Below, in pieces: positions 8,027-32,866 of a DNA stretch of 33,631 nucleotides. Source of the DNA: Lentisphaeria bacterium (GTDB taxonomy: Bacteria > Verrucomicrobiota > Lentisphaeria > JABSQK01 > JAWLHB01); NCBI GenBank assembly GCA_041690595.1, contig JAWLHB010000063.1, forward strand, positions 1 to 33,631, given 5' to 3'. Positions within the stretch are counted from its first letter, which is position 1; each line of letters begins with the position of its first letter. Both the position numbers and the translations under genes were made by a program. The notes under the pieces are model-generated. The model ran no database searches and was not told the DNA's origin. It was given only the letters and a program-made list of their open reading frames with translations.

Positions 8027-9116
8027 GACTGATCCAGGGCTGGTGACGCGTGCGGGCGAGCTGCTCGTACTCGTCCAGTTGTTGCGCGGTGAGGTCGGCC
8101 ATCGGTGTCTGATGACAGTAATAGCGGTTATACCATTGCGCGGTCAGGCGAGCCGTTTGCGCAAAGGTCATCGTCGGTCGCCAGGCGAGACGATGCATGG
8201 CCTTTTCGGAACTGAGTTGAAGCAGATGCGATTCCTTGCCGACGAGGGTGGCGGGCATGGCGTCCCAGGCGCATCCGGGCCAATGGCGGAGCAGCGCCTC
8301 GATCAGCTCCGCCACGGTGTTGCCGGGGCCGGGGGGCGGACCGAAGTTGAAGGCTTCGCCACGAATGCCGTCGCTTTCGCCGAGCAGGCGGCTCCCCGTC
8401 AGGAGATAACCGCTGAGGGGTTCGAGGACGTGCTGCCATGGTCGAGTTGCGCCGGGGTTGCGTACCGCCACCCGCTCACCGCGCGACCAGGCCCGGGCAC
8501 AGTCGGGCACGATGCGGTTGTCGGCCCAGTCGCCACCGCCGATGACGTTGCCGGCACGCACCGAGCTGATGGCCGCCCCCGTGCGGAAGTAGGAAGCCTG
8601 ATAGGCGTGTATGATCAGTTCCGCGGCAGCCTTCGAAGCGCTGTAGGGATCATCGCCGCCGAGCCGATCGTCCTCGCGATAGCCCCACTCCCACTCGACG
8701 TTGCGGTAGCACTTGTCGCTCGTGATGATCACGCCGGCGGCAACGCTGGGGGTATGGCGGATCGCCTCCAGCACGTTAGCGGTGCCGGCGACGTTGGTCT
8801 CGAAGGTGAGTACGGGTTCGCTGTAGCTGCGCGCCACCAGGGACTGAGCGGCCAGGTGAAAGACGATCTCGGGCTGGAAGGCATCGAAGGCCGCCTGCAC
8901 GGCTGCGCCGTCGCGAACATCCCCCCAGGTCATCTGGAGGCGTTGTTCGAGGCCGGTGGCAGCGAAGAGGGATGGTTCGGTGGGGATGCAGTCAGCATAG
9001 CCTGCGAGCCTGGCGCCGAGGCGGTGCAGCCAGCTTGCCAGCCAGGCGCCCTTGAAGCCGGTTACGCCGGTGATCAGAACGCGGCGATCACGATAGCAGT
9101 CATTGAAAGGATTCAT
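8016..9116 (-). CDS. rfbG: CDP-glucose 4,6-dehydratase
   Basis: TGVTGFKGAW, FHLAAQSLV, ITSDKCY, DPYSASKA, RAGNVIGGGDW, RPWQHVLEPL. ATG 9116 overlaps the rfbF stop. Confidence 0.95.
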   Translation of the reverse strand: MNPFNDCYRDRRVLITGVTGFKGAWLASWLHRLGARLAGYADCIPTEPSLFAATGLEQRLQMTWGDVRDGAAVQAAFDAFQPEIVFHLAAQSLVARSYSEPVLTFETNVAGTANVLEAIRHTPSVAAGVIITSDKCYRNVEWEWGYREDDRLGGDDPYSASKAAAELIIHAYQASYFRTGAAISSVRAGNVIGGGDWADNRIVPDCARAWSRGERVAVRNPGATRPWQHVLEPLSGYLLTGSRLLGESDGIRGEAFNFGPPPGPGNTVAELIEALLRHWPGCAWDAMPATLVGKESHLLQLSSEKAMHRLAWRPTMTFAQTARLTAQWYNRYYCHQTPMADLTAQQLDEYEQLARTRHQPWISHED

Positions 9117-9934
9117 CAGTTGTCCCAGATTTTCCATGGTGCGCGGCCGGTATGCCAGAGCTTTTCAAGATACTCGCGCTCGCGTATATTGTCCATGCAC
9201 TGCCAGAAGCCGTCGTGGGTATGGACGCGGAGCTGTCCATCGTGCGCCAGTTGCTGCAGGGGGCCGAACTCGAAGTCGCAGTCGTCGTCTTCGGTCAAGC
9301 GATCGAGGAAATCGCGCCGAAAGACGAAGAAGCCACCGTTGATGATGCTCTGGGAGAGCTGGGGCTTCTCCTCGAAGGTGGTGACGCGGTCGCCCTCCAG
9401 GCGCATTTCGCCGAAGCGCGAGGGGGGGCGCACCCCCGTCACCGTCCCGACGGCGCCGTGGCTGCAGTGGAAGCGGTAAAGGGCCTGCATGTCCATGGTG
9501 CCGACGCCATCGCCGTAGGTGAGCATGAAGTGCTCCCGATCGAGGTGTTCGGCGACCCGCTTGATCCGCCCTCCCTTGAGGGTATCGACGCCGGTATCGA
9601 TGCAGGTGACCTCCCACGCCTGCTCGGCCCCTTTGCGGTGAACGACGGGCATCCGCTCCGGATCGAGGCGCACGGTGAAGTCGCTGGCCATAATCGGATA
9701 CTCGAAGAAGAAGCGCTTGATGCAGGTCGATTTGTAGCCGAGGGCGAGGACGAAGCGTCGGCAGCCGAAGCAGGAGTAGTACTTCATGATGTGCCAGAGG
9801 ATGGGCATGCCGCCGATCTCGACCATGGGTTTCGGCCGAAGCTCGGTCTCTTCCATCAGTCGAGTGCCTCTGCCGCCGCAGAGGATAACGACGGGGATTT
9901 CCCGCAGGTCGGGAAGGGAGTTGAGATCATCCAT
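9116..9934 (-). CDS. rfbF: Glucose-1-phosphate cytidylyltransferase
   Basis: LCGGRGTRL, PKPMVEIG, ILWHIMK, LTYGDG, INGGFFV, GFWQCMD. Confidence 0.95.
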   Translation of the reverse strand: MDDLNSLPDLREIPVVILCGGRGTRLMEETELRPKPMVEIGGMPILWHIMKYYSCFGCRRFVLALGYKSTCIKRFFFEYPIMASDFTVRLDPERMPVVHRKGAEQAWEVTCIDTGVDTLKGGRIKRVAEHLDREHFMLTYGDGVGTMDMQALYRFHCSHGAVGTVTGVRPPSRFGEMRLEGDRVTTFEEKPQLSQSIINGGFFVFRRDFLDRLTEDDDCDFEFGPLQQLAHDGQLRVHTHDGFWQCMDNIREREYLEKLWHTGRAPWKIWDN

Positions 9935-9964: not shown

Positions 9965-10750
9965 TCAGCGTGTGGCTGTGAAGAAGTGCTGGTACTTGAG
10001 GAAGGGAAGGAGGCGTGGGAGATGGTCGCGCATCAGCCGGGGGAAGGCTCTGTAGAGGGGCTGGAGCAGCCTCCATGGCACCCGCGGGATCGTGCAGCCA
10101 AGCGGTTGGTATTGGATGTCGCGGAAGCCGATCTCACGCAGGAGCGCATGCAGTTGCCGGCTGGTGTAGGCGTACGAGAAGGTGTAGTCGGTCGCCTGCG
10201 CGAAGCGCTGGCAATGGATGGCCTGAATCAGGCTGAAGGCGTTGACGCGGGTGAAGATGAAGGTTCCTCCCGGCTTGAGCACGTCATGGCAAATCCTCAG
10301 GTGCAGCTTTGCCTGGGCAGGAAGAATGTAGCCGACGACGCTGGAGCTGACCACGCAATCGTACTGGATGGGCGCATCGAAGAGACCGTTGCGCGTGTGA
10401 TAGAGGTTGGCCTGGGGGTAGACCTCGGCAATCGCCTGGAGTGCACCGCGGTTGACCTCCACGGCATCGACCCTATCGAAGCGCGGCCAATAGTCTTCCT
10501 TCCACCATGGCCCGCCGCAACCGTAGTCGAGCAGGGCTCCGCCACGGGGCATGCGCTCCATCATGAGCGCATTGAAGGAGCGGCGGACCGCCCCGACTTC
10601 CGGGCCGAAGTAGCTCTGCTCCAGCGTCTCCAGCGACTCGAGGATTGCCTCGCCTTCGGCATGTCGGCGCAGCTCTTCCATGTGGCAGAGGGCCTCGAGA
10701 ATCGGCAGATCGTGACGTTCCAGAGTGCGGTCTTCGATCGTGGCCATCAT
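9965..10750 (-). CDS. Class I SAM-dependent methyltransferase
   Basis: LLDYGCGG motif I, VEVN, LKPGG. ATG 10750 or 10747 with GGAGG upstream, overlapping the previous stop. Confidence 0.82.
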   Translation of the reverse strand: MMATIEDRTLERHDLPILEALCHMEELRRHAEGEAILESLETLEQSYFGPEVGAVRRSFNALMMERMPRGGALLDYGCGGPWWKEDYWPRFDRVDAVEVNRGALQAIAEVYPQANLYHTRNGLFDAPIQYDCVVSSSVVGYILPAQAKLHLRICHDVLKPGGTFIFTRVNAFSLIQAIHCQRFAQATDYTFSYAYTSRQLHALLREIGFRDIQYQPLGCTIPRVPWRLLQPLYRAFPRLMRDHLPRLLPFLKYQHFFTATR

Positions 10751-12249
10751 GCCTCCAGATAAGGCTGAAGGTTTTCGTCGCAGACCGCTCGGAAATAGCT
10801 GCTTATGTACGCCATGCCTTGCTCGATGCTGGAGGCGATGGCGGCGGGCTCGCGGGTCTCGATGGCATGCAGTGCATCCCGGATGGCCGAGGCGGAGTCT
10901 GCCTGCCACTTGAGGTGTGGACACTGAAAGAGCGGATCACCCGCCGCGCCAAAACCGATGTCGAGATAGATGACGGGAATACCGAGCGCCAGGGCCTCCA
11001 TGCAGACGGTGGTCTCCGAGTAGAGAAGGAGGTCGGCGCGGGCGAGAAAGGGGCCCATGGCTTCGCCGTCGCGGATCGTGAAGTTGTCGGGCAGCGGCTG
11101 ACCGAGGCTGGCTACCTGCTGCGCCGTGGGCAAGGCCGGATGCGCTTTGACGTCGACCTGGTAGGTGGTACCGGCAAAGGCTTCGATGGCCATGCGCAGC
11201 ACCGGCAGGTTGGTTGAGAGATCAATGGTGAGGGGCAGCGCCAGCCGTTGGACGGATCCGCTCCATGGCTTGGCCGGGAGCTGGCGGAGGTTCTGGAAGC
11301 GGATGGCGGCGCCGGGCCGCAGGCATCCTTCGGGAAAGGCGCCATAGTCGGCCAGGATGTCGCGGGAGCGCTCCCCGGTCGTCAGGATGCAATCGGGCAG
11401 CGGGGCGATGCCACGTTCCTCGGCGGGAGGAAAGAAGCGCAGTTGATTGAGAAGGACGGTGGTGTGCTGAGCGCCAACCAGCCGTGGCGGATGCTCGCTT
11501 CGGCGCGCGGCCAGGCAGAGGAGCCGCTCCCAAGGATGGTTCTCCCATGGCCAGAGGAGCCGCCTGGGGCTCTGCTGGCGAAGCAGCCTCACAAAGGCGC
11601 GCTGGTACATGAGGTGACGCATGAGGAGCCCGTTGACCTGCTCCTGGTGCCAGCGGTTGAGCAGGTACTCCGGCCATTCGTCGGCAAGGCCGTCGGGCAG
11701 GGTGAATCGCGCCGCGAGGGCGCCGGCGACCGCGCGGAGGAGATCGCCATGGGTCATGAAAGCTTCGATGGGAAAGATCGGGCCGCTTTCGGCGGCAAGG
11801 CGGGCCGCGACCAGATGCTCGTCGGCCACGGTGATGGCGACCTGCGCCCATCGCACCTTGCGGGCGTCGAGGTAGTCGAGCAGCGGTTGCCAATAGGGAT
11901 CCCGCCGCTTGCCATGGTCATCCCAGCCGCGTTTGTCGAGGTAGGTGAAGAGCAGCAGGTCGCATGGTCCTTCCGCCTGGCACCTGTGCAGGCGACGGCG
12001 GAGGGCGGCCGGCGCGAGGAGGCGCAGCCGGTGAGCCTGTGCGGCGGCATGCTGAAGCAGGGTCCGCCGATCACCTTCCGGTTGGGGCATCTTTCCGCTC
12101 TCCAGAAAGGGGAGCAGATGGGGCAGCTCGTTGGCCCTGGCGGCCAAATCGGAAGCCCACCAGGCAGGATTGTCCACATTGAGGCGGGCAATGTTGCCGA
12201 TCATGGAGCGGTATGCCTCGAAGGGTTCAGGCAGTGGCTTCACGCTCAT
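10747..12249 (-). CDS. Surface-carbohydrate biosynthesis protein, putative GT-B-fold transferase (resembles LIC13510/TIGR04326-type proteins)
   Basis: 500-aa ORF coupled at both ends; PWENHPWE, GAQH, VKAHP, ETTVCMEALALGIPV. Family assignment is from memory. Confidence 0.6.
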   Translation of the reverse strand: MSVKPLPEPFEAYRSMIGNIARLNVDNPAWWASDLAARANELPHLLPFLESGKMPQPEGDRRTLLQHAAAQAHRLRLLAPAALRRRLHRCQAEGPCDLLLFTYLDKRGWDDHGKRRDPYWQPLLDYLDARKVRWAQVAITVADEHLVAARLAAESGPIFPIEAFMTHGDLLRAVAGALAARFTLPDGLADEWPEYLLNRWHQEQVNGLLMRHLMYQRAFVRLLRQQSPRRLLWPWENHPWERLLCLAARRSEHPPRLVGAQHTTVLLNQLRFFPPAEERGIAPLPDCILTTGERSRDILADYGAFPEGCLRPGAAIRFQNLRQLPAKPWSGSVQRLALPLTIDLSTNLPVLRMAIEAFAGTTYQVDVKAHPALPTAQQVASLGQPLPDNFTIRDGEAMGPFLARADLLLYSETTVCMEALALGIPVIYLDIGFGAAGDPLFQCPHLKWQADSASAIRDALHAIETREPAAIASSIEQGMAYISSYFRAVCDENLQPYLEA

Positions 12250-13052
12250 TCCTTCTTTGTCTTCTGGATATGGGCCACGTATTTCCGGGTATGAAGCCGG
12301 CAGTTGTCGAGCGGCAGCATGCGTTTGAGGAAATAGGCGATGGTACCGGGAGGAGTTCGGGCGGCCAGATACTCGGTGACTTCGAAGCAGGCCGGCGAGA
12401 TGTAGCGGTCGCTGAAGCGCGGATGGACCATGATGTCATCACAGAGGATGCGGCCGCCTGGACGACAGAGATGCCAGCCGTTGCAGGTGTCCCAGGCCGC
12501 TTCCGGATAGTGGTGACCGCCATCGACCCAGACCAGATCGAAGAGACCCTCCACGGCTCCGGGAATGAAGAAGGAGTTGAGCTTCAGGAAGCGGATGTTG
12601 GACTTGGCCAGGTTGAGGGCCTGACGCCGCGAGAAGGCGGCATAGGCGTCATCGCTCTGCCGATCGTAGGAGGAGCGCAGAATCGGATCGCTCTCGGGCA
12701 GATCGACGGTGACGATTTCGGATTCGGGAAAGAGGGCGGCGAGGATGGCGGTGAACTGGCCATCATAGGTACCGATTTCCAGGATGCGCCGCCATGGCCC
12801 GGGCTGGAGGCTGATGGCGCTGAAGAGGAGCCAGTGAATGCTGTCGTTGCGCCGGTCGAAGCTGCGTTGGAGTTGATCGTTGAGGATCAGATCGAGCCTC
12901 TTTCGTGCAGCCTCGAAGTCAAAGCCGAGCTGCTGGAAGCGCGCCTCTTCCTCTGCTGCCACTCTGGCTGGCGGATGCCGACGAAGGTAACGCATCAGGC
13001 ATACCTTCTCGACGTAAGCGCGCGGATTGAAGTATTTGCTCAAGGTTGCCAT
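12246..13052 (-). CDS. Class I SAM-dependent methyltransferase (Methyltransf_24-like)
   Basis: ILEIGTYDG, TVDLP, VWVDGGH, PGGRILCDD. Confidence 0.82.
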   Translation of the reverse strand: MATLSKYFNPRAYVEKVCLMRYLRRHPPARVAAEEEARFQQLGFDFEAARKRLDLILNDQLQRSFDRRNDSIHWLLFSAISLQPGPWRRILEIGTYDGQFTAILAALFPESEIVTVDLPESDPILRSSYDRQSDDAYAAFSRRQALNLAKSNIRFLKLNSFFIPGAVEGLFDLVWVDGGHHYPEAAWDTCNGWHLCRPGGRILCDDIMVHPRFSDRYISPACFEVTEYLAARTPPGTIAYFLKRMLPLDNCRLHTRKYVAHIQKTKKE

Positions 13053-13096: not shown

Positions 13097-13945
13097 CTAC
13101 CAGTCGGTATACAATTCCGCCAATTGAGGGGCGGGTCGAAGGATGAGCCCGAAGAATCCTTCCAGATCTTCTGCTCGCCACAACGATTTGGTCAGGCGCA
13201 GAGGATGACGGCGCGGGTACTGAAGGTACGTTTCCTGGTGTACGATCTCCCAGCCGGTGAAGTTGCAGAGGAGGCGAAGATCCTGGGGTGAAAGCTCAAA
13301 GATGTGGGTGTTCTCAGCAGAAGCCTTGCGGTGAACCGGGCCGCGAAGATGGTGCAGACCGATCCGGCTGCGCGCCACGTACGGTACTGTCACCACCAGC
13401 AGACAATCCGGCGTCGATTTGCCCAGATCGTAGAGGAAGCGAGCGGGGTTCATGAAATGCTCCAGCGTTTCGAAAAGCAGGAAGATGTCAGCGGCACCAT
13501 GTTCGTGGTGCAGCTCCTCCGCCCGGCAGCAGACAGCCTCGAGCCCTTTTGCGCGAATTCGCTCTACGGCATGGGGATCCATGTTCACACTGAGGGTGTG
13601 AACATCGTGGTCAAGCAATGCCTTGATGTACCGCAGGTGCGTGCCGGAGGAATCGCCGATATCGACAATGAGGCGGGCATCCGGTTTGAGGTCGCAGGCT
13701 TTGAGGGCAAGGCGAGTCTGAAACGCATGTGCTTGCCGGATCTTCCTCGTGATATACTCAGAATCGAGTCGAACCGAGGTGTACTGATCGGAGATATCCG
13801 GAATGATCACTTCGAGTTGCCGCACGATGGCATCCAGCCCCTGCTCTCGGGCAGCCGCTTTCAGCGATCGCAGCCGGATACCGAAGAGAAGATCCAGTTT
13901 TCCGCCGATCCTGGCAAGCAAGAGATCAGACATTGTGATTTGCAT
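13097..13945 (-). CDS. Methyltransferase-domain protein
   Basis: IVDIGDSSG, FETLEH, VTVPY. Start ATG 13945 or 13933; the upstream part of the track ORF overlaps the dehydrogenase gene. Confidence 0.72.
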   Translation of the reverse strand: MQITMSDLLLARIGGKLDLLFGIRLRSLKAAAREQGLDAIVRQLEVIIPDISDQYTSVRLDSEYITRKIRQAHAFQTRLALKACDLKPDARLIVDIGDSSGTHLRYIKALLDHDVHTLSVNMDPHAVERIRAKGLEAVCCRAEELHHEHGAADIFLLFETLEHFMNPARFLYDLGKSTPDCLLVVTVPYVARSRIGLHHLRGPVHRKASAENTHIFELSPQDLRLLCNFTGWEIVHQETYLQYPRRHPLRLTKSLWRAEDLEGFFGLILRPAPQLAELYTDW

Positions 13946-13959
13946 GTCCCATGATCGCG

Positions 13960-15558
13960 TTACTCCGGTTCTTTTCCGAACAGGCGCAGCAGTTCTTCGA
14001 TGGCTGCCCAGCCCATATTCTTGATGGCGCGGTTGCTGCTGCCGGCGATGTGGCAGGTGGTGAGCAGATGTGGCGTCGCGCCAAGCTCGGGGCTGGGGAC
14101 GGGTTCGTCTTCGTAGACGTCGATGGCGGCGCCGGCGAGCCGGTTCGCGTGGAGGGCGGCCGCCAGCGCGGCCTCGTCGACCACTTCGCCACGTGAGGTA
14201 TTGAGCAGGTAGCCGCCGGGCTTCATCCGGGCGAGGAAGCTCTGGTTGACGAGGTGGAGATTCTGGGGGGTCATGGAGATGTGCAGGGAGATGATGTCGC
14301 TCTCGCGGATCAGGTAATCCTGGGGGACGGCTTCGGCGGGAGCTTCGGCGTCGATTTCGAGCAGGTCGTTGACGAGGAGGCGCCCTACCCCGAGTTGGGC
14401 GAACTTGCGGGCGACGACTTTGCCGACGTGGCCATAGCCGATGATGCCGACGGTCATTTCGGCCAGCTCGCGGCCGGGAAGCTTGCGCCATTTGCCGGCG
14501 CGATATCCCTGGATGCTGTCGTCGATGTTGCGCAGCATCATGATGGTGAGGGCAATGACGAGTTCGCCGACGCTGTCGGAGTTGACCCCCTTTCGGTAGG
14601 CCACCTCGATCTGGGCGCGCCGCGCCGCGTCGAAGTCGACATTGTTAAGGCCGACGCCATACTTGGAGACGTAGCGCATGAGGGGGAGTTGCGCGATGAC
14701 CTCGGCGGAAAAGGGCTCGGTACCCAGGATGAGGCCGTCGGCCTCGGCGAGGAAGGCGGCCAGCTCGTCACCGGCCAGCTTGCCATCGGAGGGATTGAGG
14801 AGAACGTTGGGGTAGAAGCGGCGGAGTTCACTGACGAGGTAGTCGTCGTTGCAGAAGGTCTTGGAGGTGACGGCGATGGTGGGGTTGCCGGTGGCGGCGC
14901 GGAGGCGCATGCGGGGGAGGACATCGAGGGTGCTGCAGTCACCGGCGGCATTGATGAGGCGGATGCCGCGTCCGAGGAGGAGCTGGCGGGTTTTGGCGAG
15001 CCAGTCGGCAAGTTCGGGGAAGTGGTAGTTACGGGCCTGCTCGACATCGATGCCGCCTGGTGCGGGGCGATAGAAGGGCTGGTCGGGGTTCTCGACGCTG
15101 CCGTCGACGCCGAGGATGTAGATGGGGTTGCATCCCATCCAGACGGCCAACTGCACTTCGATCTGGAGCACGTTGCTGGCGTAGACCTGTCGGGTTAGAT
15201 CGAGGGAAAAGGATTTGGCGTGGCCGGTGGTGGAGAAGGTGCAGGGGATGGACACGAGGCGCCGGCGGATCTCGGCCGGGGGATCCCAGCCGCGGTTCTT
15301 CTCGAGGACGCTTTCGGGGACGACGACGATGGTGTCGAGCGCGTCGGCGATCTGGTCGCGCAGGGGGGCAAAGCGTTCATTGCGCTGGAAACAGATGTAG
15401 TTGAAGCGGCGCTGGGCGGCATCGACGAGGAGCTGATTGCAACCGATGGTGACGTGGTCGCGGAGGCAGTCGAGGTCGAGGCTGGCCAGATGGGGGGCGG
15501 TTCCCAGGCAGAAGCCGGGCTGGCCGGCATGACGGTCGCGCAGGTCACGGATCTCCAT
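13960..15558 (-). CDS. Fusion: N-terminal DUF115/Maf/CstII-like domain + C-terminal D-2-hydroxyacid (phosphoglycerate-dehydrogenase-like) dehydrogenase
   Basis: N-terminal LGTAPHL, TIGCNQ, MGCNPIYILGVD, LINA; C-terminal SKYGVGLNNVD, GIIGYGHVG, LNTSRG, DVYEDEP, HIAG; one uninterrupted 532-aa frame. Confidence 0.8.
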   Translation of the reverse strand: MEIRDLRDRHAGQPGFCLGTAPHLASLDLDCLRDHVTIGCNQLLVDAAQRRFNYICFQRNERFAPLRDQIADALDTIVVVPESVLEKNRGWDPPAEIRRRLVSIPCTFSTTGHAKSFSLDLTRQVYASNVLQIEVQLAVWMGCNPIYILGVDGSVENPDQPFYRPAPGGIDVEQARNYHFPELADWLAKTRQLLLGRGIRLINAAGDCSTLDVLPRMRLRAATGNPTIAVTSKTFCNDDYLVSELRRFYPNVLLNPSDGKLAGDELAAFLAEADGLILGTEPFSAEVIAQLPLMRYVSKYGVGLNNVDFDAARRAQIEVAYRKGVNSDSVGELVIALTIMMLRNIDDSIQGYRAGKWRKLPGRELAEMTVGIIGYGHVGKVVARKFAQLGVGRLLVNDLLEIDAEAPAEAVPQDYLIRESDIISLHISMTPQNLHLVNQSFLARMKPGGYLLNTSRGEVVDEAALAAALHANRLAGAAIDVYEDEPVPSPELGATPHLLTTCHIAGSSNRAIKNMGWAAIEELLRLFGKEPE

Positions 15559-15561
15559 GGG

Positions 15562-16338
15562 TCAGGACTCCCGCTGGGGTTGACGGATCGCAGCCAGGCC
15601 GGCTCTGCAGGCGTTGCCGAGGAGGGTGATATCGAGGCTGTAGGCGATGAAGGTGTAGCCTTGGCGAAAGCGGCTGAGGACCTCATCGGGAAGGGGCTGC
15701 ACGACGTGGATGCCGGTGGCGAGACCGGCGGCGCGACTGACGCTGAGGATCCGCTCGCAGGCCGCCAGATAGTCCGGGTGATCGAATTGTGCGGTGATGC
15801 CCATGGAGGCGGAGAGATCGTAGGGGCCGATCATGACGCCGTCCACCCCCGGCACGTGGACAATCTCTTCGAGTTGCTCGAGGGCGCGCCGGTGCTCGAT
15901 CTGAATGCAGACGGAGATGTCGGCATTGGCGCGGGCGACGGCGGCCTGTATATCGTGTCCGTACGCATTGCAGCGTGCATAGCCGACGCCGCGCTCTCCC
16001 TGGGGTGGATACTTGACGGAGCGCACCAGTTCGCGAGCTTCGGCGGCGCTGTTGATGAAGGGGCAGATGACGCCCCGGGCGCCCGCATCGAGATAGCGCT
16101 TGGTGGTGGCGTAGTCGTTGCCGGGGAGGCGCACCATTGGCACGCAGCCTGGATTGCCGGCGCCGATCGCCTGGAAGATGGCATGGGCCTGGGCGAGGTC
16201 GACCGGGGAGTGCTCGGCATCGATGACGAGGAAGTCAAAGCCGGCCTGGCTCATCAATTCGGCGACGATGGGGCTGGCGGTATTGATCCAGGAACCGACG
16301 GCATCGCGACGTTCTCGCAGAATGGACATGGGCTTCAT
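15562..16338 (-). CDS. HpcH/HpaI (2-dehydro-3-deoxyglucarate-type) class II pyruvate aldolase
   Basis: IDAEHSP, VRL, LDAGARGVICP, YPPQGERGVG, QIEH, GPYDLSASMG. Confidence 0.9.
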   Translation of the reverse strand: MKPMSILRERRDAVGSWINTASPIVAELMSQAGFDFLVIDAEHSPVDLAQAHAIFQAIGAGNPGCVPMVRLPGNDYATTKRYLDAGARGVICPFINSAAEARELVRSVKYPPQGERGVGYARCNAYGHDIQAAVARANADISVCIQIEHRRALEQLEEIVHVPGVDGVMIGPYDLSASMGITAQFDHPDYLAACERILSVSRAAGLATGIHVVQPLPDEVLSRFRQGYTFIAYSLDITLLGNACRAGLAAIRQPQRES

Positions 16339-16356
16339 CCAGGGGGCTGATCGGTT

Positions 16357-17106
16357 TCAGTAACGGCAAAGGAGAGGATCGTTGGCCATGCGGCGCTCCA
16401 CCTCGGCCAAATCGGCGGGGGTGTCGACGGCATGGGTATCGAACTCCACCTCGACCATACGCACGGGTATGCCGTTTTCGACAAAGCGCATCATATCGAC
16501 GGATTCGGCGAGTTCAAGCGGGGTGGGAGCAAGTTGCACGTACTGCTGGAGGGCATCCCGTCGAAAAGGGATGATGCAGACCTGCTTGTAGCGGGGGATG
16601 TTGTCGAAGCCCTCGATGTCATCCGTGGGAATGGGCCGACGGGAGAAGTAGAGGGCATTGCCCTGGCGATCCATGACGACCTTGATGGTGTTTCGGCTCT
16701 CCCACTCCCCGCGGGTGGGGATGCGGGCGGTGAGGTTGACGCACTGGATGGCGGGATCGAGCTTCATGTCGCGGACGGATGCCTCGATCATGTCGGGGGT
16801 GGTCATCGGTTCGTCGCCCTGGACCATGACGATGATATCGGCATCGAGATTGGCGGCTGCTTCGGCGACGCGTTCGCTGCAGCGGGTGTGGGTGGCGGCG
16901 GTCATGATGGCGTTGCCGCCGAATGCTTCGGTGGCGGCGCGAATCTCCTCATCGCAGGTCGCCAGATAGACCTGATCGATGGAGGGGGCCATGGCGACGC
17001 GCCGGTAGACGTGCTCGATCATGGGGCGGCCCAGGATGGGCGCGAGGGGTTTGCCGGGGAAGCGGGACGAGCCCATGCGGGCGGGGATGACGGCAACAAT
17101 CTTCAT
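16357..17106 (-). CDS. KdsB-like (CMP-Kdo synthetase family) ulosonic-acid cytidylyltransferase
   Basis: IPARMGSSRFPGKPL, VQGDEP, ALYFSR, AVDTPADL. Substrate-side motifs differ from canonical KdsB. Confidence 0.88.
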   Translation of the reverse strand: MKIVAVIPARMGSSRFPGKPLAPILGRPMIEHVYRRVAMAPSIDQVYLATCDEEIRAATEAFGGNAIMTAATHTRCSERVAEAAANLDADIIVMVQGDEPMTTPDMIEASVRDMKLDPAIQCVNLTARIPTRGEWESRNTIKVVMDRQGNALYFSRRPIPTDDIEGFDNIPRYKQVCIIPFRRDALQQYVQLAPTPLELAESVDMMRFVENGIPVRMVEVEFDTHAVDTPADLAEVERRMANDPLLCRY

Positions 17107-17765
17107 GATTCGATCTGCTCCTTGCTGATGAAATCGTCGGGGGGAAGATCCTTGATGGGCCGGGCGGGATTGCCTGCGGCCACCACATTGGGAGGGATGT
17201 CACGGCTGACGAGGCTGCCGGCGCCAATGACGGAGTTCTCGCCGATGGTCACGCCTTTGAGGATGATCGTCTGCATGCCGATCCAGACGCAGTTGCCGAT
17301 GGTCACCGCGGCATCGGTGCCCTGAGGTGGGTTCATGACGCGATTATGCGGCGGCCATAGGGCATGAAAGTCTGAATCGACAATGGTCACGTTGGGGGCA
17401 ATCATGACGTTCTCGCCAAGGCGGATGGTAGTGGAGCGGGCGACGATGGAGGTGCCATTCAGGCCGCTCCCGGCACCGATGATAATGCGGGCGGCGGGCA
17501 GGTAGGTGACAAAGCGCACAGGCGCATAGAGGGTCGACGCCGTGCAGCGGAAGGACGATGAGACGAGGCAGACACGATCCTCGATTCGGATGTTGCTCCC
17601 GGGGCATCTGCGGATCATGACCGGCCCTGCCGCGCGGACTTCCTGCCCGAGTTCCACACCGATCAACCGACACTTCCATCGCAAGCGCCATGTGCTCCAC
17701 AGTTCGGTGCCTTGTATCCGCAACAGCTGGGAGAACCAGGCCATTCTATCTTGAAAGCGGGTCAT
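17103..17765 (-). CDS. Hexapeptide-repeat (LbH) O-acyltransferase
   Basis: DSDFH, IGNCVWIG, KGVTIGENSVIGAGSLV, AGNPA. Confidence 0.9.
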   Translation of the reverse strand: MTRFQDRMAWFSQLLRIQGTELWSTWRLRWKCRLIGVELGQEVRAAGPVMIRRCPGSNIRIEDRVCLVSSSFRCTASTLYAPVRFVTYLPAARIIIGAGSGLNGTSIVARSTTIRLGENVMIAPNVTIVDSDFHALWPPHNRVMNPPQGTDAAVTIGNCVWIGMQTIILKGVTIGENSVIGAGSLVSRDIPPNVVAAGNPARPIKDLPPDDFISKEQIES

Positions 17766-19363
17766 GAAGCGTGCCGGTGGTTGACGGTGTGGTGCAGGGT
17801 CTCGCCAAACTGGCGCCAGCGTTCGAGGTAGTCGGGGCTGGTCCAGGCATACTGTCGGCTGAAGCTTGCCCGCGCGTGCTGAACCTGTTCGCTATACCAC
17901 CAGCCCCGCGGGTCAGAGGAAAGGGTCTCGAGGTGCGCGGCAAAGGCAGCCGGCTCGTCATGGACGATACCCGCCTGGCGCAGCAAAGCCAAGGCGGCTT
18001 CCGCGTGTGGACGCATGGCGAAGAGCTCGCTGGGCCAGATGCCCACGCAGGGATAATTGAGGGCCATGGCTTCGAGAAAGCAGGTGCCCGGATGATCCAG
18101 AATGAGCAGCTTGCCGCATGACGGAAAGTCGATCATGCCACGGGTCTGATTCAACCTGCCAGGGAAATTCCGACGAAAGCTCTCCTCCTGTGGCCAGTCA
18201 AAGCTTCGGAAGAAGGGCCGATAGACGATCATCTGCTGAATAGATGGAGGGAGAGCCGCGTATGCCTGGTGGCGATTGCCATAGTAGGTTTCGGCCGATT
18301 GCGGATGATAGTCAGGCGCCAGATGTATGGGTCGCGGGTAACAGCTGTTGGAGATCCAGAGAAATGCGTTTGTTTCAAAGCGCTCGGGCAGCGCGTCAAG
18401 GCGGCTGCTGAGCGCGGAATTGGGCAGGGGGACGCACTGGTCTCGGGAACCGTAGCGGTCATCCTGCCAGCCCCAGGTAATGAAGCTGTCCGCCAGCCGG
18501 CGCTCGACCATCTCTTGAAAGAGGTTGGTCGCCATGCCATAGGCACCGCCATGTTGCTGGCCGACGATCCTGCCGCCGTTTTCACGGACGAACGCCATGA
18601 TGAAGACGAGTGAGTACTCCGCGTACAGGCGTGCATCCAACCAGACGACCTGGTAGCGGCCGGCGTGACGCCGCGCAAAGCGGTAGTAGTCGGAGAAAGC
18701 TTCCACCAGGCTGATGGGCAGGGACCACGCCAAGTGTGCGGCGCAGCGGCGAGTATTGTCATCCTGAGCGGTCGCCACAACCTCTTCGGCAATGCGTCGA
18801 CGCAGGTCGAGATTGAAGGTGATTGACGAGGTGTTGAGGCCGGCATAGCCACGCTTGCGCGTTCGGCCAAAGTGGCCGCAGACTGAGCGGACAGCTTTCG
18901 GATCCATGGCGGAGGGGATGGCGAGCAGTCCACTGGTGGTGCGGAAGAGGAGGCGCTCCAGCCAGCCGTCGGGATAGGTGAGCGCGGGCACCTCGAAGCG
19001 AAGCGAGACAGTCGGATTGTCGGTGGCGGTGAGGCAGTCGTAGTGCAGCATGCAGCTCTTGTGCCAGATATCGCTTGGATTATGAACGGCAGGTATGGAG
19101 AGGCCACCGGCGGCCAACTCAACCCGCGGAGGATAACCGCCGGCAAGCACGATCTCGACGTGTGCGGAGAGCCATGGTGCCAGCAGGCACTCCCAGAAGG
19201 CGGATGAATGCTTGACCTGATGCACCTGCCCCAGTACCCCCGCCAGACTCGTCAGCAGTTCATTGAAGATCCGTTGACCGAGGGCTACGGCATCGGCCCC
19301 CGGCGTCAGGGCGCGGGTTGGTGGAGCATATCCGCCGGGAAAGAGGTGGGGTGATGGCGACAT
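17762..19363 (-). CDS. Putative transferase, LIC12162-family-like
   Basis: LLAPWL, GQQHGGAYG, FITWGW, TCFLEAMALNYP, WWYSEQVQHAR. Start ATG 19363, 5 bp after the ABC stop. Family recalled from memory. Confidence 0.68.
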   Translation of the reverse strand: MSPSPHLFPGGYAPPTRALTPGADAVALGQRIFNELLTSLAGVLGQVHQVKHSSAFWECLLAPWLSAHVEIVLAGGYPPRVELAAGGLSIPAVHNPSDIWHKSCMLHYDCLTATDNPTVSLRFEVPALTYPDGWLERLLFRTTSGLLAIPSAMDPKAVRSVCGHFGRTRKRGYAGLNTSSITFNLDLRRRIAEEVVATAQDDNTRRCAAHLAWSLPISLVEAFSDYYRFARRHAGRYQVVWLDARLYAEYSLVFIMAFVRENGGRIVGQQHGGAYGMATNLFQEMVERRLADSFITWGWQDDRYGSRDQCVPLPNSALSSRLDALPERFETNAFLWISNSCYPRPIHLAPDYHPQSAETYYGNRHQAYAALPPSIQQMIVYRPFFRSFDWPQEESFRRNFPGRLNQTRGMIDFPSCGKLLILDHPGTCFLEAMALNYPCVGIWPSELFAMRPHAEAALALLRQAGIVHDEPAAFAAHLETLSSDPRGWWYSEQVQHARASFSRQYAWTSPDYLERWRQFGETLHHTVNHRHAS

Positions 19364-19368
19364 GGGAT

Positions 19369-21192
19369 TCAGATCCGCTGGGCGGCCAGGAGTTGGTTGA
19401 AGAGGGAGTCGGGGCGGGAGGCCAGCTCGTCGAAGCTTCCCTGCTCGGCGATCCGGCCACCGGAGAGAACGTAGATACGGTCGGCGCGGCGGAGGGTGGA
19501 GAGGCGGTGGGCGATGACGATGGTGGTGAGCTTGCCCTTCATCTGATCGATGGTTTCCTGGATGAGGCGCTCGTGCTGGCTGTCGAGGTTGCTGGTGGCC
19601 TCGTCGAGGATGAGTAGCGAGGGTTGCCGATAGAGTTCGCGGGCGATCTGCAGGCGCTGGCACTGTCCACCGGAGAGGGTCATGCCACGGTCGCCGATGA
19701 GGGCGCGGTATCCTTCGGGAAGCTCCTCAATGAATTCGGTGGCCCTGGCGAGTTCGGCGGCATGGCGAATCCGTTGCCAGCCTTCCCGATCCGACTCGTC
19801 GACGGCTTCCATGGCGATGTTGTAGGCGATGGTGTCGTTGTAGATGTGTCCTTCCTGGACAACGTAGCCCACGCTGCGACGCACTTCGTCGAGGTCGAGG
19901 GTACGGAGATCGCGGCCGGCGATATGGACGCTGCCGGCGGAGGGTTGCATGAGGCCGAGCAGGAGGTTGATGGTGGATGTTTTTCCAGCGCCGGAGGTAC
20001 CGGCGATGCCGATCATCTCGCCCGGCTGAATCTGCATGGTGAGGCCGCGCAGCACCGGCTTGTCGCCGAGTATGAGTTCGACGTTGCGCAGCTCGACGGC
20101 ATAGGCGCGCTCCGGGAGGGGATCGGCCCCGGTTTTCTCGCGATCCTCCTCGAAGCGGGCGGTGGCGTGGCTGAAGTTTTCCAGGCTGCCGAGGGTACTG
20201 TGGAAGGTCTGCCAATTGCTTTGAAAGACTTGAACCTGGCGAGTGGCGCGATAGAAGAGATAGAGCATGGGCATCATGGCCAGGAGATTGCCACCGTGGA
20301 CAGCCTGGTCGACGAGAAAGAGGAGGATGGCCATACCCAGGGCAATCGGCTCGGCGAGTGCCGTGACCAGATGGCGAGGGCGCATGCGCAGGAAGTGAAT
20401 CTCGGCGACCTCGCTAACCACCTCTTCCAGCCGTTTCAGCATCTGGGAGAAGCGGGCGGTGGCTTTGAGGTAACGGAAGGACTGGACGCTCTGGATAAGG
20501 AGGTTGTTCAGGCGGGCGTTGGCTTCCGTCATCAGGCGGGAGTAGTGGCGGCTGATCTTGAGCAGCGACTTGAAGGCATAGAGCACAGCCACGGACATGA
20601 CGATCGCGACCACGAGGATGAGGGGACGGATCAGGGCGATGCCGGCCAGGTAGAAGGCGGCGGTTACCAAGGCCGCCAGTGCCAGTACGTAACACGCAAA
20701 GGCGGTGCTGACGGTGATGCTGTCATTGACGATGAGATTGGTGAAATAGCCGACATTCTGCTTCGCGTAGGAAAGGAAGCTGATCCCGGAAAAGCGGTTG
20801 ACCAGTTCCATCCGCAACTTCACCATAAGATTCGCCATCATGCGTTCCTGCAGGATATTCTGCCAGTAGAGACAGATTCCCCGGACGACCACGATGATGC
20901 CGATGAGGACGAAGATGCCGACGAGCGACTGGGGGAGGTGGAAGAAGGTGAGGACGGCCATCACCATGCGGGTGAGCAGAGAGGAAGGCTCTTCCTCCAT
21001 GGATTTGGTGGCCAGGTTGATGAGGGGGACGAGGGTGCCGACGCCAACGACCTCCAGCAGGGTGCCGAAGCCGGTCAGGAAGAAATAGAAGTAGATCCGC
21101 CCCCCAAGTCTTTCCCGATAGAATCGGAAGTAGTGCAGCAGGGTGGAGATCAGCGGGAGATTAAACAAGGTGCGCCTGGTGTTGTCGATCAA
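19369..21192 (-). CDS. ABC transporter permease/ATP-binding fusion (MsbA/PglK-like glycolipid flippase candidate)
   Basis: N-terminal hydrophobic helices; Walker A GTSGAGKTS, LSGGQCQR, ILDEATSNLD, IAHRLST. The TTG start is uncertain. Confidence 0.9.
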   Translation of the reverse strand: MIDNTRRTLFNLPLISTLLHYFRFYRERLGGRIYFYFFLTGFGTLLEVVGVGTLVPLINLATKSMEEEPSSLLTRMVMAVLTFFHLPQSLVGIFVLIGIIVVVRGICLYWQNILQERMMANLMVKLRMELVNRFSGISFLSYAKQNVGYFTNLIVNDSITVSTAFACYVLALAALVTAAFYLAGIALIRPLILVVAIVMSVAVLYAFKSLLKISRHYSRLMTEANARLNNLLIQSVQSFRYLKATARFSQMLKRLEEVVSEVAEIHFLRMRPRHLVTALAEPIALGMAILLFLVDQAVHGGNLLAMMPMLYLFYRATRQVQVFQSNWQTFHSTLGSLENFSHATARFEEDREKTGADPLPERAYAVELRNVELILGDKPVLRGLTMQIQPGEMIGIAGTSGAGKTSTINLLLGLMQPSAGSVHIAGRDLRTLDLDEVRRSVGYVVQEGHIYNDTIAYNIAMEAVDESDREGWQRIRHAAELARATEFIEELPEGYRALIGDRGMTLSGGQCQRLQIARELYRQPSLLILDEATSNLDSQHERLIQETIDQMKGKLTTIVIAHRLSTLRRADRIYVLSGGRIAEQGSFDELASRPDSLFNQLLAAQRI

Positions 21193-21226
21193 GTGATTAC
21201 AGTCAAGTCTACATGCACGCGCGACA

Positions 21227-23065
21227 CTACTGCTCAGAGGCTAATGTGCAGGGGGGAATGGGTTCGATACACATGGCGGCAGCTGAAGGTCGCCACTGGT
21301 TGTCAAGCATCAGTTCATGCTGCTGGTCGATCTTGCCGCTGACGATATACTCCCTCAATAGCTGAATTCCATCAATACCCTGCGTCGCATAATCTTCGAT
21401 GAGAGGGAATTCATCAAAAGAAAATCCCTGAATCAGCACATCATTGACACGATCCAAGAGGGCCACTTCGTCATCAAAGACCAAGCGTCCCATGTACTCA
21501 TGGAAAGGATGACGACGACAGCCCGTCAGATCAAAGTACAATCCTGGTATTCGGTTGGCCAGTCCAACACCAACAGCACTGTTCAGCGCAAGACCTATAT
21601 TCAAATCTGCCGCGCAGACTGTACCGAAGAAATCATCATGAAGACAATCAAATAAATGTACACCATTGGCGCGCAACAGATCCCATTCACCCGCAAAATC
21701 AAAAGCTTTTGGCTTCAGGGCCATCCATGCCTGAGGGAAGCGTCGTCGGCATTCCAGAATAAGTTCAAGGAAGCGCTTCTTGAATGCTGTATTGAACATG
21801 AAGGTGTCGCTGATAGAATTGTCGTAAAAGACAAGCTTCGGAGCCTTCACATCCTTCATTGCAGCAGGAATAGACGGATAATTGTATTCACGATTAAATC
21901 GACAGCCAGCGATGTACAGGCGACAGGTAGAAACACGGTCGACCAAGGGAGTTGCGGCAAGCGGTCCCCAAACGAAGACAGCATCGATGGGACAATGGGA
22001 AAACATAAACGCCTCATACCCAACGAGATCCGAATAGAAATAGGTCGCTGTTCTGACTCCAAGCCACCTTGCCACAATTGCTTCAGCGAATGGTTCACAT
22101 ACCTGAAGATCATAATAGCAGCGAACATCGACATACGAAAAAACCTGAAGAGCATGAAATAAGCGCTGCAGCAAATCAGCGAATTTTGGCAGCATGGAGG
22201 GACGGGAAAGAAGGGTAAATGGCATAACGAGAATGATGGCACCCGCACCCCACAAGAGCGTTGCCCAGTATTCGCGTCCGAAATTAATCCGCCTGGAGCC
22301 GACCAAGTGCAACGTCTTATACTTTAACCTGCGGGCTTCATTAAGTGCGTGCATGCGGTACGGATCATTTTGCTCGGCACGACTAAAGAAGACAACGTCA
22401 TCCGCAGTTATCAGTCTACCATCAATGAGAAAATCGGCACTTGAGAGGCTGTTGGCCTGAATGCGGTTCAGTTCCGTCAAAACTGTTCCTTTATGCCTAT
22501 CAGACAAATGTGGTCTGGCCAGAAAGGCTCTCGCCGCGTTTCTGAGGAATGCAGTGCTATACAAGAGAAGCATCAACAGGGTAAGCAGTAGAGAAAATGT
22601 ATAGCTCCTCCTTTCCAGGTTTTCAGCAGCGGCTATCCGAGCATGCCGCCAAAATGGCAGGATAAAGATCTCCTTCCTACCATCAACCTCCCATAGTGCG
22701 ACTTCCCTGCGGAAGTTATAGAGAAAGACGTTGGCCTGATTGCTGAGATCATGTTCTACAATGTCGCTCTTCACCAACCGGGAAAAGAGCCAGGTGCACC
22801 ATGCATCGCGCATGCGTAACTTGGGCAGCCAAGTTTGACTGAACTTGATATCAGCCTGCAGTCGAACGTGCAAGCCATGCACCAGACCAACGGTATCTTC
22901 CCTGACATAAAGACGCTTCATCAGCCATGAACTTGGTGGCTTTCCGGGGGGAAGACAGCACCGAAAAGATTTTCGGGTCAGCCACCCATAGAGTGAATAG
23001 GCAATCGCCTCGGAGCGCCTGTCTACTACAGCACGGAATATGTTAATGGATGAGGCAATTGCCAA
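21227..23065 (-). CDS. Hypothetical polysaccharide-biosynthesis protein, possible GT-B fold
   Basis: 612-aa ORF in an AT-richer segment; VFVWG, LVFYDNS, LKPK, ADLNIG..NS....ANRIPGLYFD at the C-terminus. The TTG start is uncertain. Confidence 0.6.
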   Translation of the reverse strand: MAIASSINIFRAVVDRRSEAIAYSLYGWLTRKSFRCCLPPGKPPSSWLMKRLYVREDTVGLVHGLHVRLQADIKFSQTWLPKLRMRDAWCTWLFSRLVKSDIVEHDLSNQANVFLYNFRREVALWEVDGRKEIFILPFWRHARIAAAENLERRSYTFSLLLTLLMLLLYSTAFLRNAARAFLARPHLSDRHKGTVLTELNRIQANSLSSADFLIDGRLITADDVVFFSRAEQNDPYRMHALNEARRLKYKTLHLVGSRRINFGREYWATLLWGAGAIILVMPFTLLSRPSMLPKFADLLQRLFHALQVFSYVDVRCYYDLQVCEPFAEAIVARWLGVRTATYFYSDLVGYEAFMFSHCPIDAVFVWGPLAATPLVDRVSTCRLYIAGCRFNREYNYPSIPAAMKDVKAPKLVFYDNSISDTFMFNTAFKKRFLELILECRRRFPQAWMALKPKAFDFAGEWDLLRANGVHLFDCLHDDFFGTVCAADLNIGLALNSAVGVGLANRIPGLYFDLTGCRRHPFHEYMGRLVFDDEVALLDRVNDVLIQGFSFDEFPLIEDYATQGIDGIQLLREYIVSGKIDQQHELMLDNQWRPSAAAMCIEPIPPCTLASEQ

Positions 23066-23136
23066 GTTACAGCAGTCCTTTACCAGATGAGATTACATCC
23101 AGATGATCAACAAAGCAGGCTACTCTGCATGCCTCT

Positions 23137-25836: not shown

Positions 25837-25843
25837 AGTCAGC

Positions 25844-30428: not shown

Positions 30429-30540
30429 GGCGGAGAGGAAGAGGAGGTTCAGGAAGATTTGTGTCGAAGCAGGGGTGGAGCTGGATAGCTGAGGTAATGC
30501 CGTATCAGTTGGAGAATGACCGTAGTTGCCCAAACAGGCT

Positions 30541-32681: not shown

Positions 32682-32785
32682 CAGCCGGCCAGTAGGCGCG
32701 GCGCATGATGGGGAGATGCTGTTGGGGGAGCGCGGCAAGTGGATAATGTCCCCGCCGAGGAAGCAAATAAAGCATTCCACCTGAC

Positions 32786-32813: not shown

Positions 32814-32866
32814 GATGCGAAGATGGACGCCGCTCGGAGAGCGCCGCCGGAGGTTCGGGAAGGGAA

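Follow-up and report, generated by a model that had tools for sequence, protein, structure and literature searches.

The closest described relatives of the system reported here are the Kdo pathway (KdsD-KdsA-KdsC-KdsB, and KpsU), the nonulosonate pathways (NeuB-NeuA and those for Leg and Pse, with Maf or GT29/GT42 transferases), and the catabolic aldolases HpcH/HpaI, GarL and YfaU (RhmA). The KdsB-like enzyme of our cassette, termed KdsB* below, has the cytidylyltransferase fold and the CTP/Mg and carboxylate residues in common with the Kdo pathway, and CMP activation of a 2-keto acid is expected for it. Unlike the Kdo pathway, the cassette lacks KdsA, KdsC and KdsD and has a pyruvate aldolase and a dehydrogenase, while KdsB* differs from KdsB/KpsU at six positions within or close to the sugar pocket, where the substitutions are fixed, and belongs to a separate clade. 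The CMP-ulosonate logic and the fold of a fused domain are shared with the nonulosonate pathways, but the cassette includes no PEP-dependent synthase, its activator is of the KdsB type rather than the NeuA type, and its Maf-like domain, devoid of the conserved Asp and His, is joined to a dehydrogenase. The catalytic and metal residues of the cassette aldolase align with those of E. coli HpaI; in contrast to catabolic HpaI, GarL and RhmA, however, this aldolase falls under all equivalog cut-offs, bears a GPYD plus H211 signature and lies in a glycan-biosynthetic context. A further point of comparison is 3-deoxy-D-lyxo-heptulosaric acid (Dha), a Kdo-like 2-keto-3-deoxy diacid.

The accessible part of one article lists the enzymes and nucleotide form of Dha as unknown in plants (PMC12168206), that of another treats Leptospira kdsB1/kdsB2 as lipid A genes (PMC4758666), and that of a third places an aldolase in a capsule locus of C. 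jejuni and gives no pathway there (PMC9858101). A full-text literature search, with subscription journals outside its scope, yielded no description of the cassette, and no account of it was found in the accessible portions of PMC3149649, PMC4616057, 10.1101/2025.01.29.635457 and PMC12887879; the SugarBase preprint, in the portion available, mentions neither an aldolase nor Nitrosomonas. Apparently, the pathway has gone undescribed in the literature.

The cassette lies in a stretch of 33,631 nucleotides from a Lentisphaeria bacterium (contig JAWLHB010000063.1; hereafter the window), which has the character of a glycan cluster, as judged by family profiles. Three intact, co-oriented ORFs were found on the minus strand at 17106-16357 (249 aa), 16338-15562 (258 aa) and 15558-13960 (532 aa), separated from one another by 18 and 3 bases, and the initial annotation was right to describe an adjacent trio. 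The first encodes KdsB* (16357..17106), assigned by PF02348, KdsB-subfamily scores, residues and a tree, and the second an HpcH/HpaI class II pyruvate aldolase (15562..16338), assigned by PF03328 and residue alignment. The third encodes a fusion protein, of which the N-terminal part is a domain of the DUF115/Maf/GT29-GT42 fold (14893..15558; relatives and predicted fold) and the C-terminal part a D-2-hydroxyacid dehydrogenase (13960..14892; families, motif and triad). The start of KdsB* is overlapped by 4 bases by a minus-strand gene for a hexapeptide-repeat O-acetyltransferase (17103..17765, family assignment), a homologue of which (53%) sits between HpcH and KdsB* in another locus, L188. Also on the minus strand are two SAM methyltransferases assigned by family and by orthologues in genome G247: a probable tailoring enzyme (13097..13945, the latter being the estimated start), whose 49% orthologue flanks KdsB* in that genome, and a Methyltransf_24 member (12246..13052), whose 41% orthologue lies on the opposite flank. 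A NeuA::NeuB fusion recognized by family profiles (30533-28689) confirms that a separate NeuA/NeuB system is present upstream of the cassette. Likewise, the earlier statement that the window has no kdsA, kdsD or kdsC agrees with our scan of 30 window ORFs, none of which matched the KdsA, KdsC or KdsD families. On a separate contig (C2) of the same genome, housekeeping kdsB and kdsA genes are paired, with a KdsC-like ORF next in line; judging from these genes, the genome can make Kdo.

The window KdsB* matched PF02348 with an E-value of 2.5e-45 and scored over the cut-off of the KdsB subfamily NF009905 and slightly below the TIGR00466 equivalog cut-off (153.2 vs 155.2). Among solved structures, the capsule CMP-Kdo synthetase 1gq9 comes nearest to it (E 1e-51), and the protein shares 41% identity with the housekeeping KdsB encoded on C2. 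R10, K19, R78, Q98-G-D100, R157 and D235 (E. coli numbering) are retained, and the CTP/Mg residues among them (R10, K19, Q98-G-D100, D235) as well as R157 were found in the window protein and in 119/119 homologues. The pocket, on the other hand, is changed by S74R, H181Q, G183C, Y185I, E210D and Q211M, with H181-x-G-x-Y185 and E210-Q211, in which we take H181, G183, E210 and Q211 to serve Kdo binding, being replaced by Q-V-C-I-I and D-M. Five of these changes (S74R, H181Q, G183C, Y185I/M and E210D) are fixed in all 119 top homologues, and Q211M occurs in 117. In a model on PDB 3K8D, as given in the accessible part of the source, the C5-OH of Kdo is bound by Y185 and Q98 (PMC12199768). None of H181, G183, Y185, E210 and Q211 is changed in KpsU, in the KdsB of E. 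coli or that of S. meliloti, or in the genome's own KdsB. In the phylogeny, KdsB* formed a separate long-branch clade with support of 98/99 against 97/92 for the canonical KdsB/KpsU rows, of which the tree included only four, with long branches; by tree path the window KdsB* is closest to copies from loci free of HpcH, at forks that lack resolution. At least 5,671 proteins match the window KdsB at E<=1e-60, a count of matches of which only part were checked for the clade motifs, and the named top matches are annotated as CMP-Kdo synthetase. No close homologue was found in plasmids (best 42%), in phages, or in E. coli genomes by a DNA search of low sensitivity.

The nearest structure, the NCBIfam subfamily cut-offs passed and the ability of the genome to make Kdo would suit a KpsU-like paralogue with a capsular role, activating Kdo or something closely derived from it, the aldolase and the dehydrogenase then belonging to another branch. 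We consider this reading quite improbable: canonical KdsB and KpsU keep the five pocket residues and group away from KdsB*, the TIGR00466 cut-off is narrowly missed, and canonical loci lack the close association with HpcH and the dehydrogenase. KdsB* is not the housekeeping KdsB of its genome, which lies on C2, and the altered pocket and separate clade support the earlier proposal of a CMP-activating paralogue distinct from the Kdo enzyme.

The window aldolase matched PF03328 (HpcH) over the cut-off with an E-value of 1.7e-38 and stayed under the equivalog cut-offs for HpaI (191 vs 369 bits), GarL (170 vs 407) and RhmA (149 vs 441). Its catalytic and metal residues W17, D40, E42, H43, R70, Q146, E148 and D174 are intact. 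Arg70, His45, Asp42, Glu44, Glu149 and Asp175 of E. coli HpaI, presumably the catalytic and metal residues of that enzyme (E. coli HpaI numbering), all align in it, in line with its designation as a pyruvate aldolase. The cassette aldolases are set apart from the two other HpcH paralogues of the genome by a signature composed of Y173 in GPYD (77/77 copies) and H211 (74/77).

PF00389/PF02826 cover residues 260-529 of the fusion protein. G374, G376, G379, D398, R456, E485 and H503 are invariant in 24 fusions, so that the GxGxxG motif, D398 and the Arg456-Glu485-His503 triad are kept in 24/24, one Gly position of the pattern aside. The fused dehydrogenase does not reach the SerA equivalog TIGR01327 (158 vs 454 bits), is only ~31-38% identical to the other cassette dehydrogenases and makes up its own subclade, the dehydrogenases of the three cassette types falling into separate subclades. 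The carbon on which D-2-hydroxyacid dehydrogenases act adjoins a carboxylate. For this reason, the enzyme could supply the aldehyde only if the aldehyde is itself an acid, and the earlier suggestion that it supplies or modifies the aldehyde is narrowed, as to supply, to that case.

Among the 80 closest KdsB* genome loci, a 2-hydroxyacid dehydrogenase was found in 73 and HpcH in 60, the latter being essentially one lineage. In an independent, evenly drawn set of 251 genomes belonging to another phylum, HpcH lay within 1.5 kb in 12/18 KQ-motif loci vs 0/12 canonical loci, and within ~6 kb in 14/17 of the extended loci. At canonical loci of the window's own phylum, HpcH was beside none of 28, and KdsA was adjacent in 14. 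Altogether, the trio is present in several lineages, in line with the conservation proposed for it, and the cassette was found across cultured ammonia oxidisers, Nitrosomonas europaea (locus L078) having KdsB*, HpcH and the dehydrogenase. Nevertheless, the aldolase is not the fixed part of the pathway that it had been taken for: 16 of the 80 loci have a GT2::Zn-dehydrogenase fusion instead of HpcH and none has both, implying that the aldolase is exchangeable. The HpcH-free cassette comprises a cyclase, KdsB*, a dehydrogenase and the GT2::Zn-dehydrogenase; 4 of 20 HpcH-free genomes have no HpcH match at all, and only 2 have HpcH on the KdsB* contig (29 kb and ~760 kb off). In loci L111 and L203, a KdsB with the KQVC motif adjoins a DmpG-type pyruvate aldolase unrelated to HpcH, which is a second pairing with a pyruvate aldolase. 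The HpcH-free loci (16/80) and the nearness, by path, of the window KdsB* to HpcH-free copies were counted against our preferred reading, as were the essentially single lineage behind the 60 HpcH loci, the absence of a dehydrogenase within ~6 kb from 6/17 extended loci and the divergence of the fused dehydrogenase.

With the dehydrogenase being the most constant partner (73/80), an oxidative route may be conceived, in which this enzyme creates the 2-keto group by oxidation of an aldonic or aldaric acid at C2, the product is activated by KdsB*, and the part of the aldolase is limited to providing a precursor or recycling the sugar. In the flanks of the HpcH-free cassette in 6 genomes (ORF picking was imperfect), no family forming C-C bonds was seen except a distant HpcH in one of them (G301), and a 6-phosphogluconolactonase homologue occurs in 46/80 loci, both of which favour such a route. 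We rate it as unlikely, since close homologues of the cassette cyclase, lactonase, HAD and GT2::Zn-dehydrogenase are all absent from the window genome, the products of the three cassette types may differ given the separate dehydrogenase subclades, and five extended loci have HpcH and KdsB* with no dehydrogenase within ~6 kb. The SDR that, together with an HAD, accompanies many cassette copies also resembles nucleotide-sugar epimerases, its best matches, and not a sugar 1-dehydrogenase; its assignment as a uronate or glucose-6-phosphate dehydrogenase was dropped. The description of the trio as a self-contained pathway is weakened, as there is no evident source of the aldehyde and the SDR and HAD of many copies have no close orthologue in the window genome.

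DUF115 (PF01973) matches the window fusion's N-terminal domain only weakly and under the cut-off (E 0.006), and we base the assignment on its relatives, 33/34 of which matched PF01973 at E<=0.001 when scanned, and on the agreement of the fold. We judge the N-terminal fusion to be real, since 23 further proteins have it too. In the predicted model (pLDDT 95.7), the domain adopts the GT-A variant fold common to Maf, GT29 and GT42, with Maf 5mu5 as the best match (Z 14.9, rmsd 3.4, 188 aligned), and CstII, Cst-I and GT29 enzymes at Z ~10 (Foldseek E 2e-4 for CstII). PDB profile searches with the fusion alignments, dominated by the dehydrogenase domain, gave no alignment to CstII or Maf. Such a fold agrees with the initial annotation, in which the fused domain transfers the sugar, and further points in the same direction are the fusion of its relatives to GT2, GT4, methyltransferase and cytidylyltransferase domains, the free-standing DUF115 genes near KdsB* in 3/80 loci, and its own invariant residues H23, N41, Q42 and D152. 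However, the Asp of alignment column 59 and the His of column 161 are found in 53/64 free-standing relatives and in 0/24 fusions, which makes a transferase role doubtful. A conserved His later in the chain, after the G-x-D motif, is also absent from the 24 fusions, whereas the catalytic base of GT29 enzymes is a His according to the accessible part of PMC10225777. Moreover, no DUF115 gene was detected within 6 kb in 77/80 KdsB* loci, and L203 has a domain of this kind joined to a cytoplasmic aldolase. An otherwise identical pathway in which the fused domain is catalytically active, transferring the sugar with inversion in the manner of Maf and the sialyltransferases, is possible, with the odds against it; the domain probably binds a CMP-sugar, and such binding, for feedback control or channelling, is more likely than transfer. 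The second fold match, MptE 8sd5 (Z 12.2, rmsd 2.9, 157 aligned; thiamine pyrophosphokinases Z 6-8), raises a kinase phosphorylating an intermediate, which we hold to be very improbable because Maf outscores MptE over the whole domain and the Asp ending the third strand, a plausible metal ligand, is replaced in 24/24 fusions.

As the transferase, we rate above the fused domain the TIGR04326-like GT-B protein (10747..12249, minus strand), a candidate CMP-sugar transferase by motif, fold and loci, at a little short of even odds. A K/R-x-H motif is conserved in it, structure comparison gave a GT-B fold, and relatives occur in 60/80 KdsB* loci, a count made without a matched control. His370 is present in 42/45 sequences and followed by Pro in only 14, an HP-type motif being the feature sought from CMP-sugar-using GT-B transferases (KpsC GT107, GT38). 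Its match to KpsC has an E-value of 3e-4 and is equalled or bettered by UDP-using enzymes, KpsC, WbbB and KrkA are absent among the 50 fold matches listed, and a word-index search retrieved the protein itself as the sole match. Its best sequence and fold matches are UDP/GDP-using enzymes, a resemblance counted against our preferred reading.

Most likely, the trio is one copy of a widespread pathway for an acidic sugar related to Kdo and sialic acid. From gene order, conservation, residues and folds, we propose, with a probability of roughly 0.55, that the operon makes, independently of PEP, a CMP-activated non-Kdo 2-keto sugar acid destined for either a surface polysaccharide or the glycan of a glycoprotein. 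The HpcH aldolase would join pyruvate, possibly hydroxypyruvate, to a short aldehyde, and the NAD-dependent dehydrogenase would interconvert a 2-oxo and a D-2-hydroxy acid, either supplying an acidic aldol partner or setting the stereocentre next to a second carboxylate. KdsB* would then transfer CMP from CTP to the anomeric C2 hydroxyl, a reaction expected from its family with the substrate being presumed, after which a glycosyltransferase of the cluster may add the sugar, and methyl- and acetyltransferases may tailor it. A Dha-like diacid as the product is a guess: in principle, an aldolase and a 2-hydroxyacid dehydrogenase, together with a KdsB-like enzyme that has one more invariant Arg, could make Dha, but the loss of Y185 in KdsB* argues against a C5 environment identical to that of Kdo. 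Among the glycan leads tried, namely Klebsiella K38, V. parahaemolyticus O7/O12, Azotobacter and Dha-bearing rhizobia, no organism with a known glycan structure was tied to the cassette, which counts against our reading. The accessible part of PMC10433991 adds E. coli K3 as a further lead, and the supplements of PMC5359410 contained no match to the cassette. Rather improbable, in our view, is the more far-reaching reading that KdsB* marks a third widespread class of CMP-ulosonate pathway with interchangeable modules (HpcH, DmpG-type aldolase, GT2::Zn-dehydrogenase), making a 2-keto diacid (Dha or a six-carbon analogue), and that a sialyltransferase-fold domain, its catalysis degenerate, serves as a CMP-sugar sensor in fusion with a biosynthetic enzyme.

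Through the fusion in the window, one operon combines the cassette with a domain of the sialyltransferase fold. If the KdsB* clade activates another sugar, the CMP-Kdo synthetase labels on its top matches are wrong. The cassette provides candidate enzymes for short or diacid ulosonates such as Dha, and the reading with a diacid and a sensor, if true, would be the first to assign enzymes to a class of sugars without a described biosynthesis. The cultured ammonia oxidisers with the cassette make the pathway testable, and a PEP-independent route to a CMP-2-keto acid, if true, would be an added branch of bacterial glycobiology.

Three adjacent genes on the minus strand were assigned by family matches to a KdsB-family cytidylyltransferase (17106-16357), an HpcH aldolase (16338-15562) and a 532-aa fusion protein with a D-2-hydroxyacid dehydrogenase as its C-terminal 310 residues (15558-13960). 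The trio, separated by gaps of 18 and 3 bases, lies within a series of co-oriented glycan genes. The initial annotation had described this arrangement, the lack of kdsA, kdsD and kdsC in the window, and a separate NeuA/NeuB system upstream. All three points were borne out: no KdsA, KdsC or KdsD match was found among the 30 window ORFs scanned, and a NeuA::NeuB fusion, NeuC and WbuX/HisH/HisF genes are located 6-13 kb upstream of the trio. Canonical kdsB, kdsA and a KdsC-like ORF are grouped on contig C2 of the same genome (97% complete). Thus, the window KdsB-like gene, whose product is 41% identical to the canonical KdsB on C2, is a paralogue.

The NeuA::NeuB gene (28689-30533, minus strand; a NeuA-like cytidylyltransferase fused N-terminally to NeuB, by family matches) is part of a legionaminic-type block with NeuC, a PglD-like acetyltransferase, a CBS-nucleotidyltransferase and WbuX/HisH/HisF, and further NeuA/NeuB sets occur on contigs C4 and C6. 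The region 21001-26000, spanning a 612-aa orphan and WbuX/HisH/HisF, has a GC content of 49-53% as opposed to ~63% on the cassette side, and is possibly a swapped-in segment. Family matches at 6606-9934 (minus strand) to RfbF/RfbG-like CDP-glucose genes, an RmlC-like epimerase and an SDR mark a CDP-deoxysugar branch within the trio's cluster. At 32240-33631, several copies of a ~200-base repeat appear as near-identical spurious ORFs, and a run of N lies near the contig end.

We aligned the window KdsB-like protein with E. coli KdsB, KpsU, S. meliloti KdsB, the KdsB of the window genome and the best 119 of at least 5,671 database matches. The window protein retains R10, K19, R78, Q98-G-D100, R157 and D235 (E. 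coli KdsB numbering), while it shares S74R, H181Q, G183C, Y185I/M and E210D with 119/119 of the best matches and Q211M with 117/119. Besides Y185, the other substituted positions are taken to line the sugar pocket. A modelling study on PDB 3K8D describes the C5 hydroxyl of Kdo as bound by Y185 and Q98 (PMC12199768). In a 39-row tree, in which 11 of the 60 HpcH-type loci were represented and long branches meet in the outgroup, the window protein and its relatives formed a single long-branch clade, KdsB* (98/99), separate from the four canonical enzymes (97/92). The KdsB* substrate is very probably something other than Kdo. Activation of plain Kdo is improbable against the four fixed changes at H181, G183, Y185 and E210 and a position outside the canonical clade; pocket residues and tree position likewise set the cassette outside the Kdo pathway. 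At locus L197:4929-7590, two KdsB* genes with an SDR between them adjoin HpcH in one cluster.

Neighbours were counted in the best 80 GTDB loci, drawn from at least 572 confirmed relatives. A dehydrogenase was found in 73/80 and HpcH in 60/80, the 60 HpcH loci being of Nitrosomonadaceae or unclassified bins and effectively one lineage. An independent sample covered 251 genomes of the phylum to which a Desulfobacterales locus belongs; 35 of them gave a match at E<=1e-55, and 30 loci were examined. HpcH lay within 1.5 kb at 12 of the 18 KQ-motif loci but at 0/12 canonical loci. Upon extension of 17 of these 18 to ~6 kb, HpcH was present in 14 and a dehydrogenase in 11, one of which appears unrelated; one further extended locus carried a DmpG-type aldolase. 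In the window's own phylum (300 genomes), KdsB* occurred at 1 of the 29 loci examined, that of G247, a genome of the same order, and neither HpcH nor the dehydrogenase was found within 1.5 kb of the 28 canonical loci. The gene-neighbourhood check suggested in the initial annotation recovered the trio in other genomes, and the cassette is real and conserved. It is apparently unpublished, as no description was found in the open literature (subscription journals being outside the scope). Most Nitrosomonas loci, including N. europaea (L078:6001-10727), carry a KdsB*-HpcH-dehydrogenase-SDR-HAD-(6-phosphogluconolactonase) operon kept across cultured species, adjoined by a divergent ~420-aa GT-B-like gene. 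For the LIC12162-family (TIGR04331) protein upstream of the cassette (17762-19366, minus strand; above cut-off), none of the 80 KdsB* loci contains a homologue.

The catalytic and metal residues of E. coli HpaI are all preserved in the window aldolase. Cassette copies, that of the window included, share Y173 (77/77), R122 (76/77) and H211 (74/77), a signature absent from the two other HpcH paralogues of the window genome. In the window dehydrogenase, the NAD motif is conserved along with the Arg/Glu/His triad; the protein reached none of the equivalog cut-offs. Enzymes of this family work on the alpha carbon, adjacent to a carboxylate, so the dehydrogenase cannot simply make an aldehyde, and its proposed role as aldehyde source would hold only for an aldehyde that is itself an acid. 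It can provide a keto-acid partner, react at the second carboxyl terminus or generate the 2-keto group. The last option would permit an oxidative route to the 2-keto acid, which we consider rather unlikely; consistent with such a route, no other C-C-forming family was detected in the wider flanks of six HpcH-free genomes (102 ORFs at E<=1e-9, with some frames missed). HpcH matches in the 20 HpcH-free genomes were absent in four, on other contigs in 14, and 29 kb and ~760 kb off in one each. A GT2::zinc-dehydrogenase fusion, often alongside a dehydrogenase and a cyclase-family hydrolase, occurs in 16/80 KdsB* loci of several phyla, HpcH in none of the 16, a result that speaks against a plain aldolase account; in L013, L015, L044, L076 and the 12 others, the fusion adjoins KdsB*. 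Since the Nitrosomonadaceae KdsB* group is also sister to two GT2-type copies (100/99; 39-row tree), the modules have been exchanged. Either KdsB* takes several sugars or its substrate is reachable by more than one route. The dehydrogenases fall into three subclades according to cassette type (fusion, HpcH and GT2), favoring related yet different chemistry. At L203:8931-10733 (minus strand) and L111:3386-4996 (plus strand), a DmpG-type pyruvate aldolase adjoins a KdsB with the KQVC motif, in which Y185 and E210 are retained; in L111, a HAD phosphatase lies downstream. This parallel aldolase cassette possibly yields Kdo, or a close analogue of it, independently of PEP.

The window fusion's N-terminal domain recurs on the same dehydrogenase in 23 other proteins (42-51% identity; search limited to 292-931 aa), so misassembly does not account for the fusion. 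In the window, the fusion and the cassette share one operon. Across six metagenome loci and G247, KdsB* was in the cluster in three, another cytidylyltransferase in three (L081, L085 and L086, where the fusion adjoins a different family), and HpcH at the contig end in one. Among distant relatives, 33 of the 34 scanned (picked from at least 150) belong to PF01973, and fusion to glycosyltransferases is frequent. The domain model (pLDDT 95.7) matched Maf best (Z 14.9, rmsd 3.4, 188 residues), then MptE (Z 12.2) and ST8SiaIII, ST3Gal and Cst-I (Z 10.2-10.5). The fold supports the transferase role proposed initially, but the Asp and His conserved in 53/64 free-standing relatives are missing from 24/24 fusions (in one, a His lies one column on), and GxGPS becomes GTAPH. 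In GT29 enzymes, a His serves as the base (PMC10225777). The fused domain has probably lost catalysis, judging from these residues; an active transferase, compatible with the main reading, is a tentative alternative, and a kinase domain, to which the lower-scoring MptE match points, is highly improbable. A related domain occurs at the C-terminus of the DmpG-type aldolase of L203 (E 7e-15), next to the KQVC-motif KdsB, and a Leisingera aldolase shows like motifs by eye with a non-significant score. As fusion to soluble biosynthetic enzymes recurs, a binding or regulatory role fits.

A candidate alternative transferase for the cassette sugar, on sequence and model grounds, is a 500-aa TIGR04326-like protein (12249-10747, minus strand; E 6e-25, below cut-off). 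Modelling gave a GT-B fold (pLDDT 89) whose best match was a UDP-GlcNAc 2-epimerase (Z 17.1); a K/R-x-H motif is conserved, and KpsC was matched weakly. An iterated local profile found relatives in 60/80 KdsB* loci (53/60 HpcH-type, 7/20 others; KdsB* loci only counted). It could serve the NeuA/NeuB product instead. Orthologues of the two methyltransferases following the trio flank KdsB* in G247.

Altogether, we regard as most likely, with a probability of roughly 0.55, that a pyruvate-type aldol reaction would build a non-Kdo 2-keto sugar acid, which the dehydrogenase would adjust before CMP activation and transfer to the surface glycan. As a guess, the product may be a diacid: Arg75, which is new and invariant, hints at one, as does the requirement for a 2-hydroxy-acid substrate. 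A 2025 review lists the synthesis of Dha as unknown (PMC12168206). As proposed from its genes, the cassette would operate like the CMP-ulosonate pathways.
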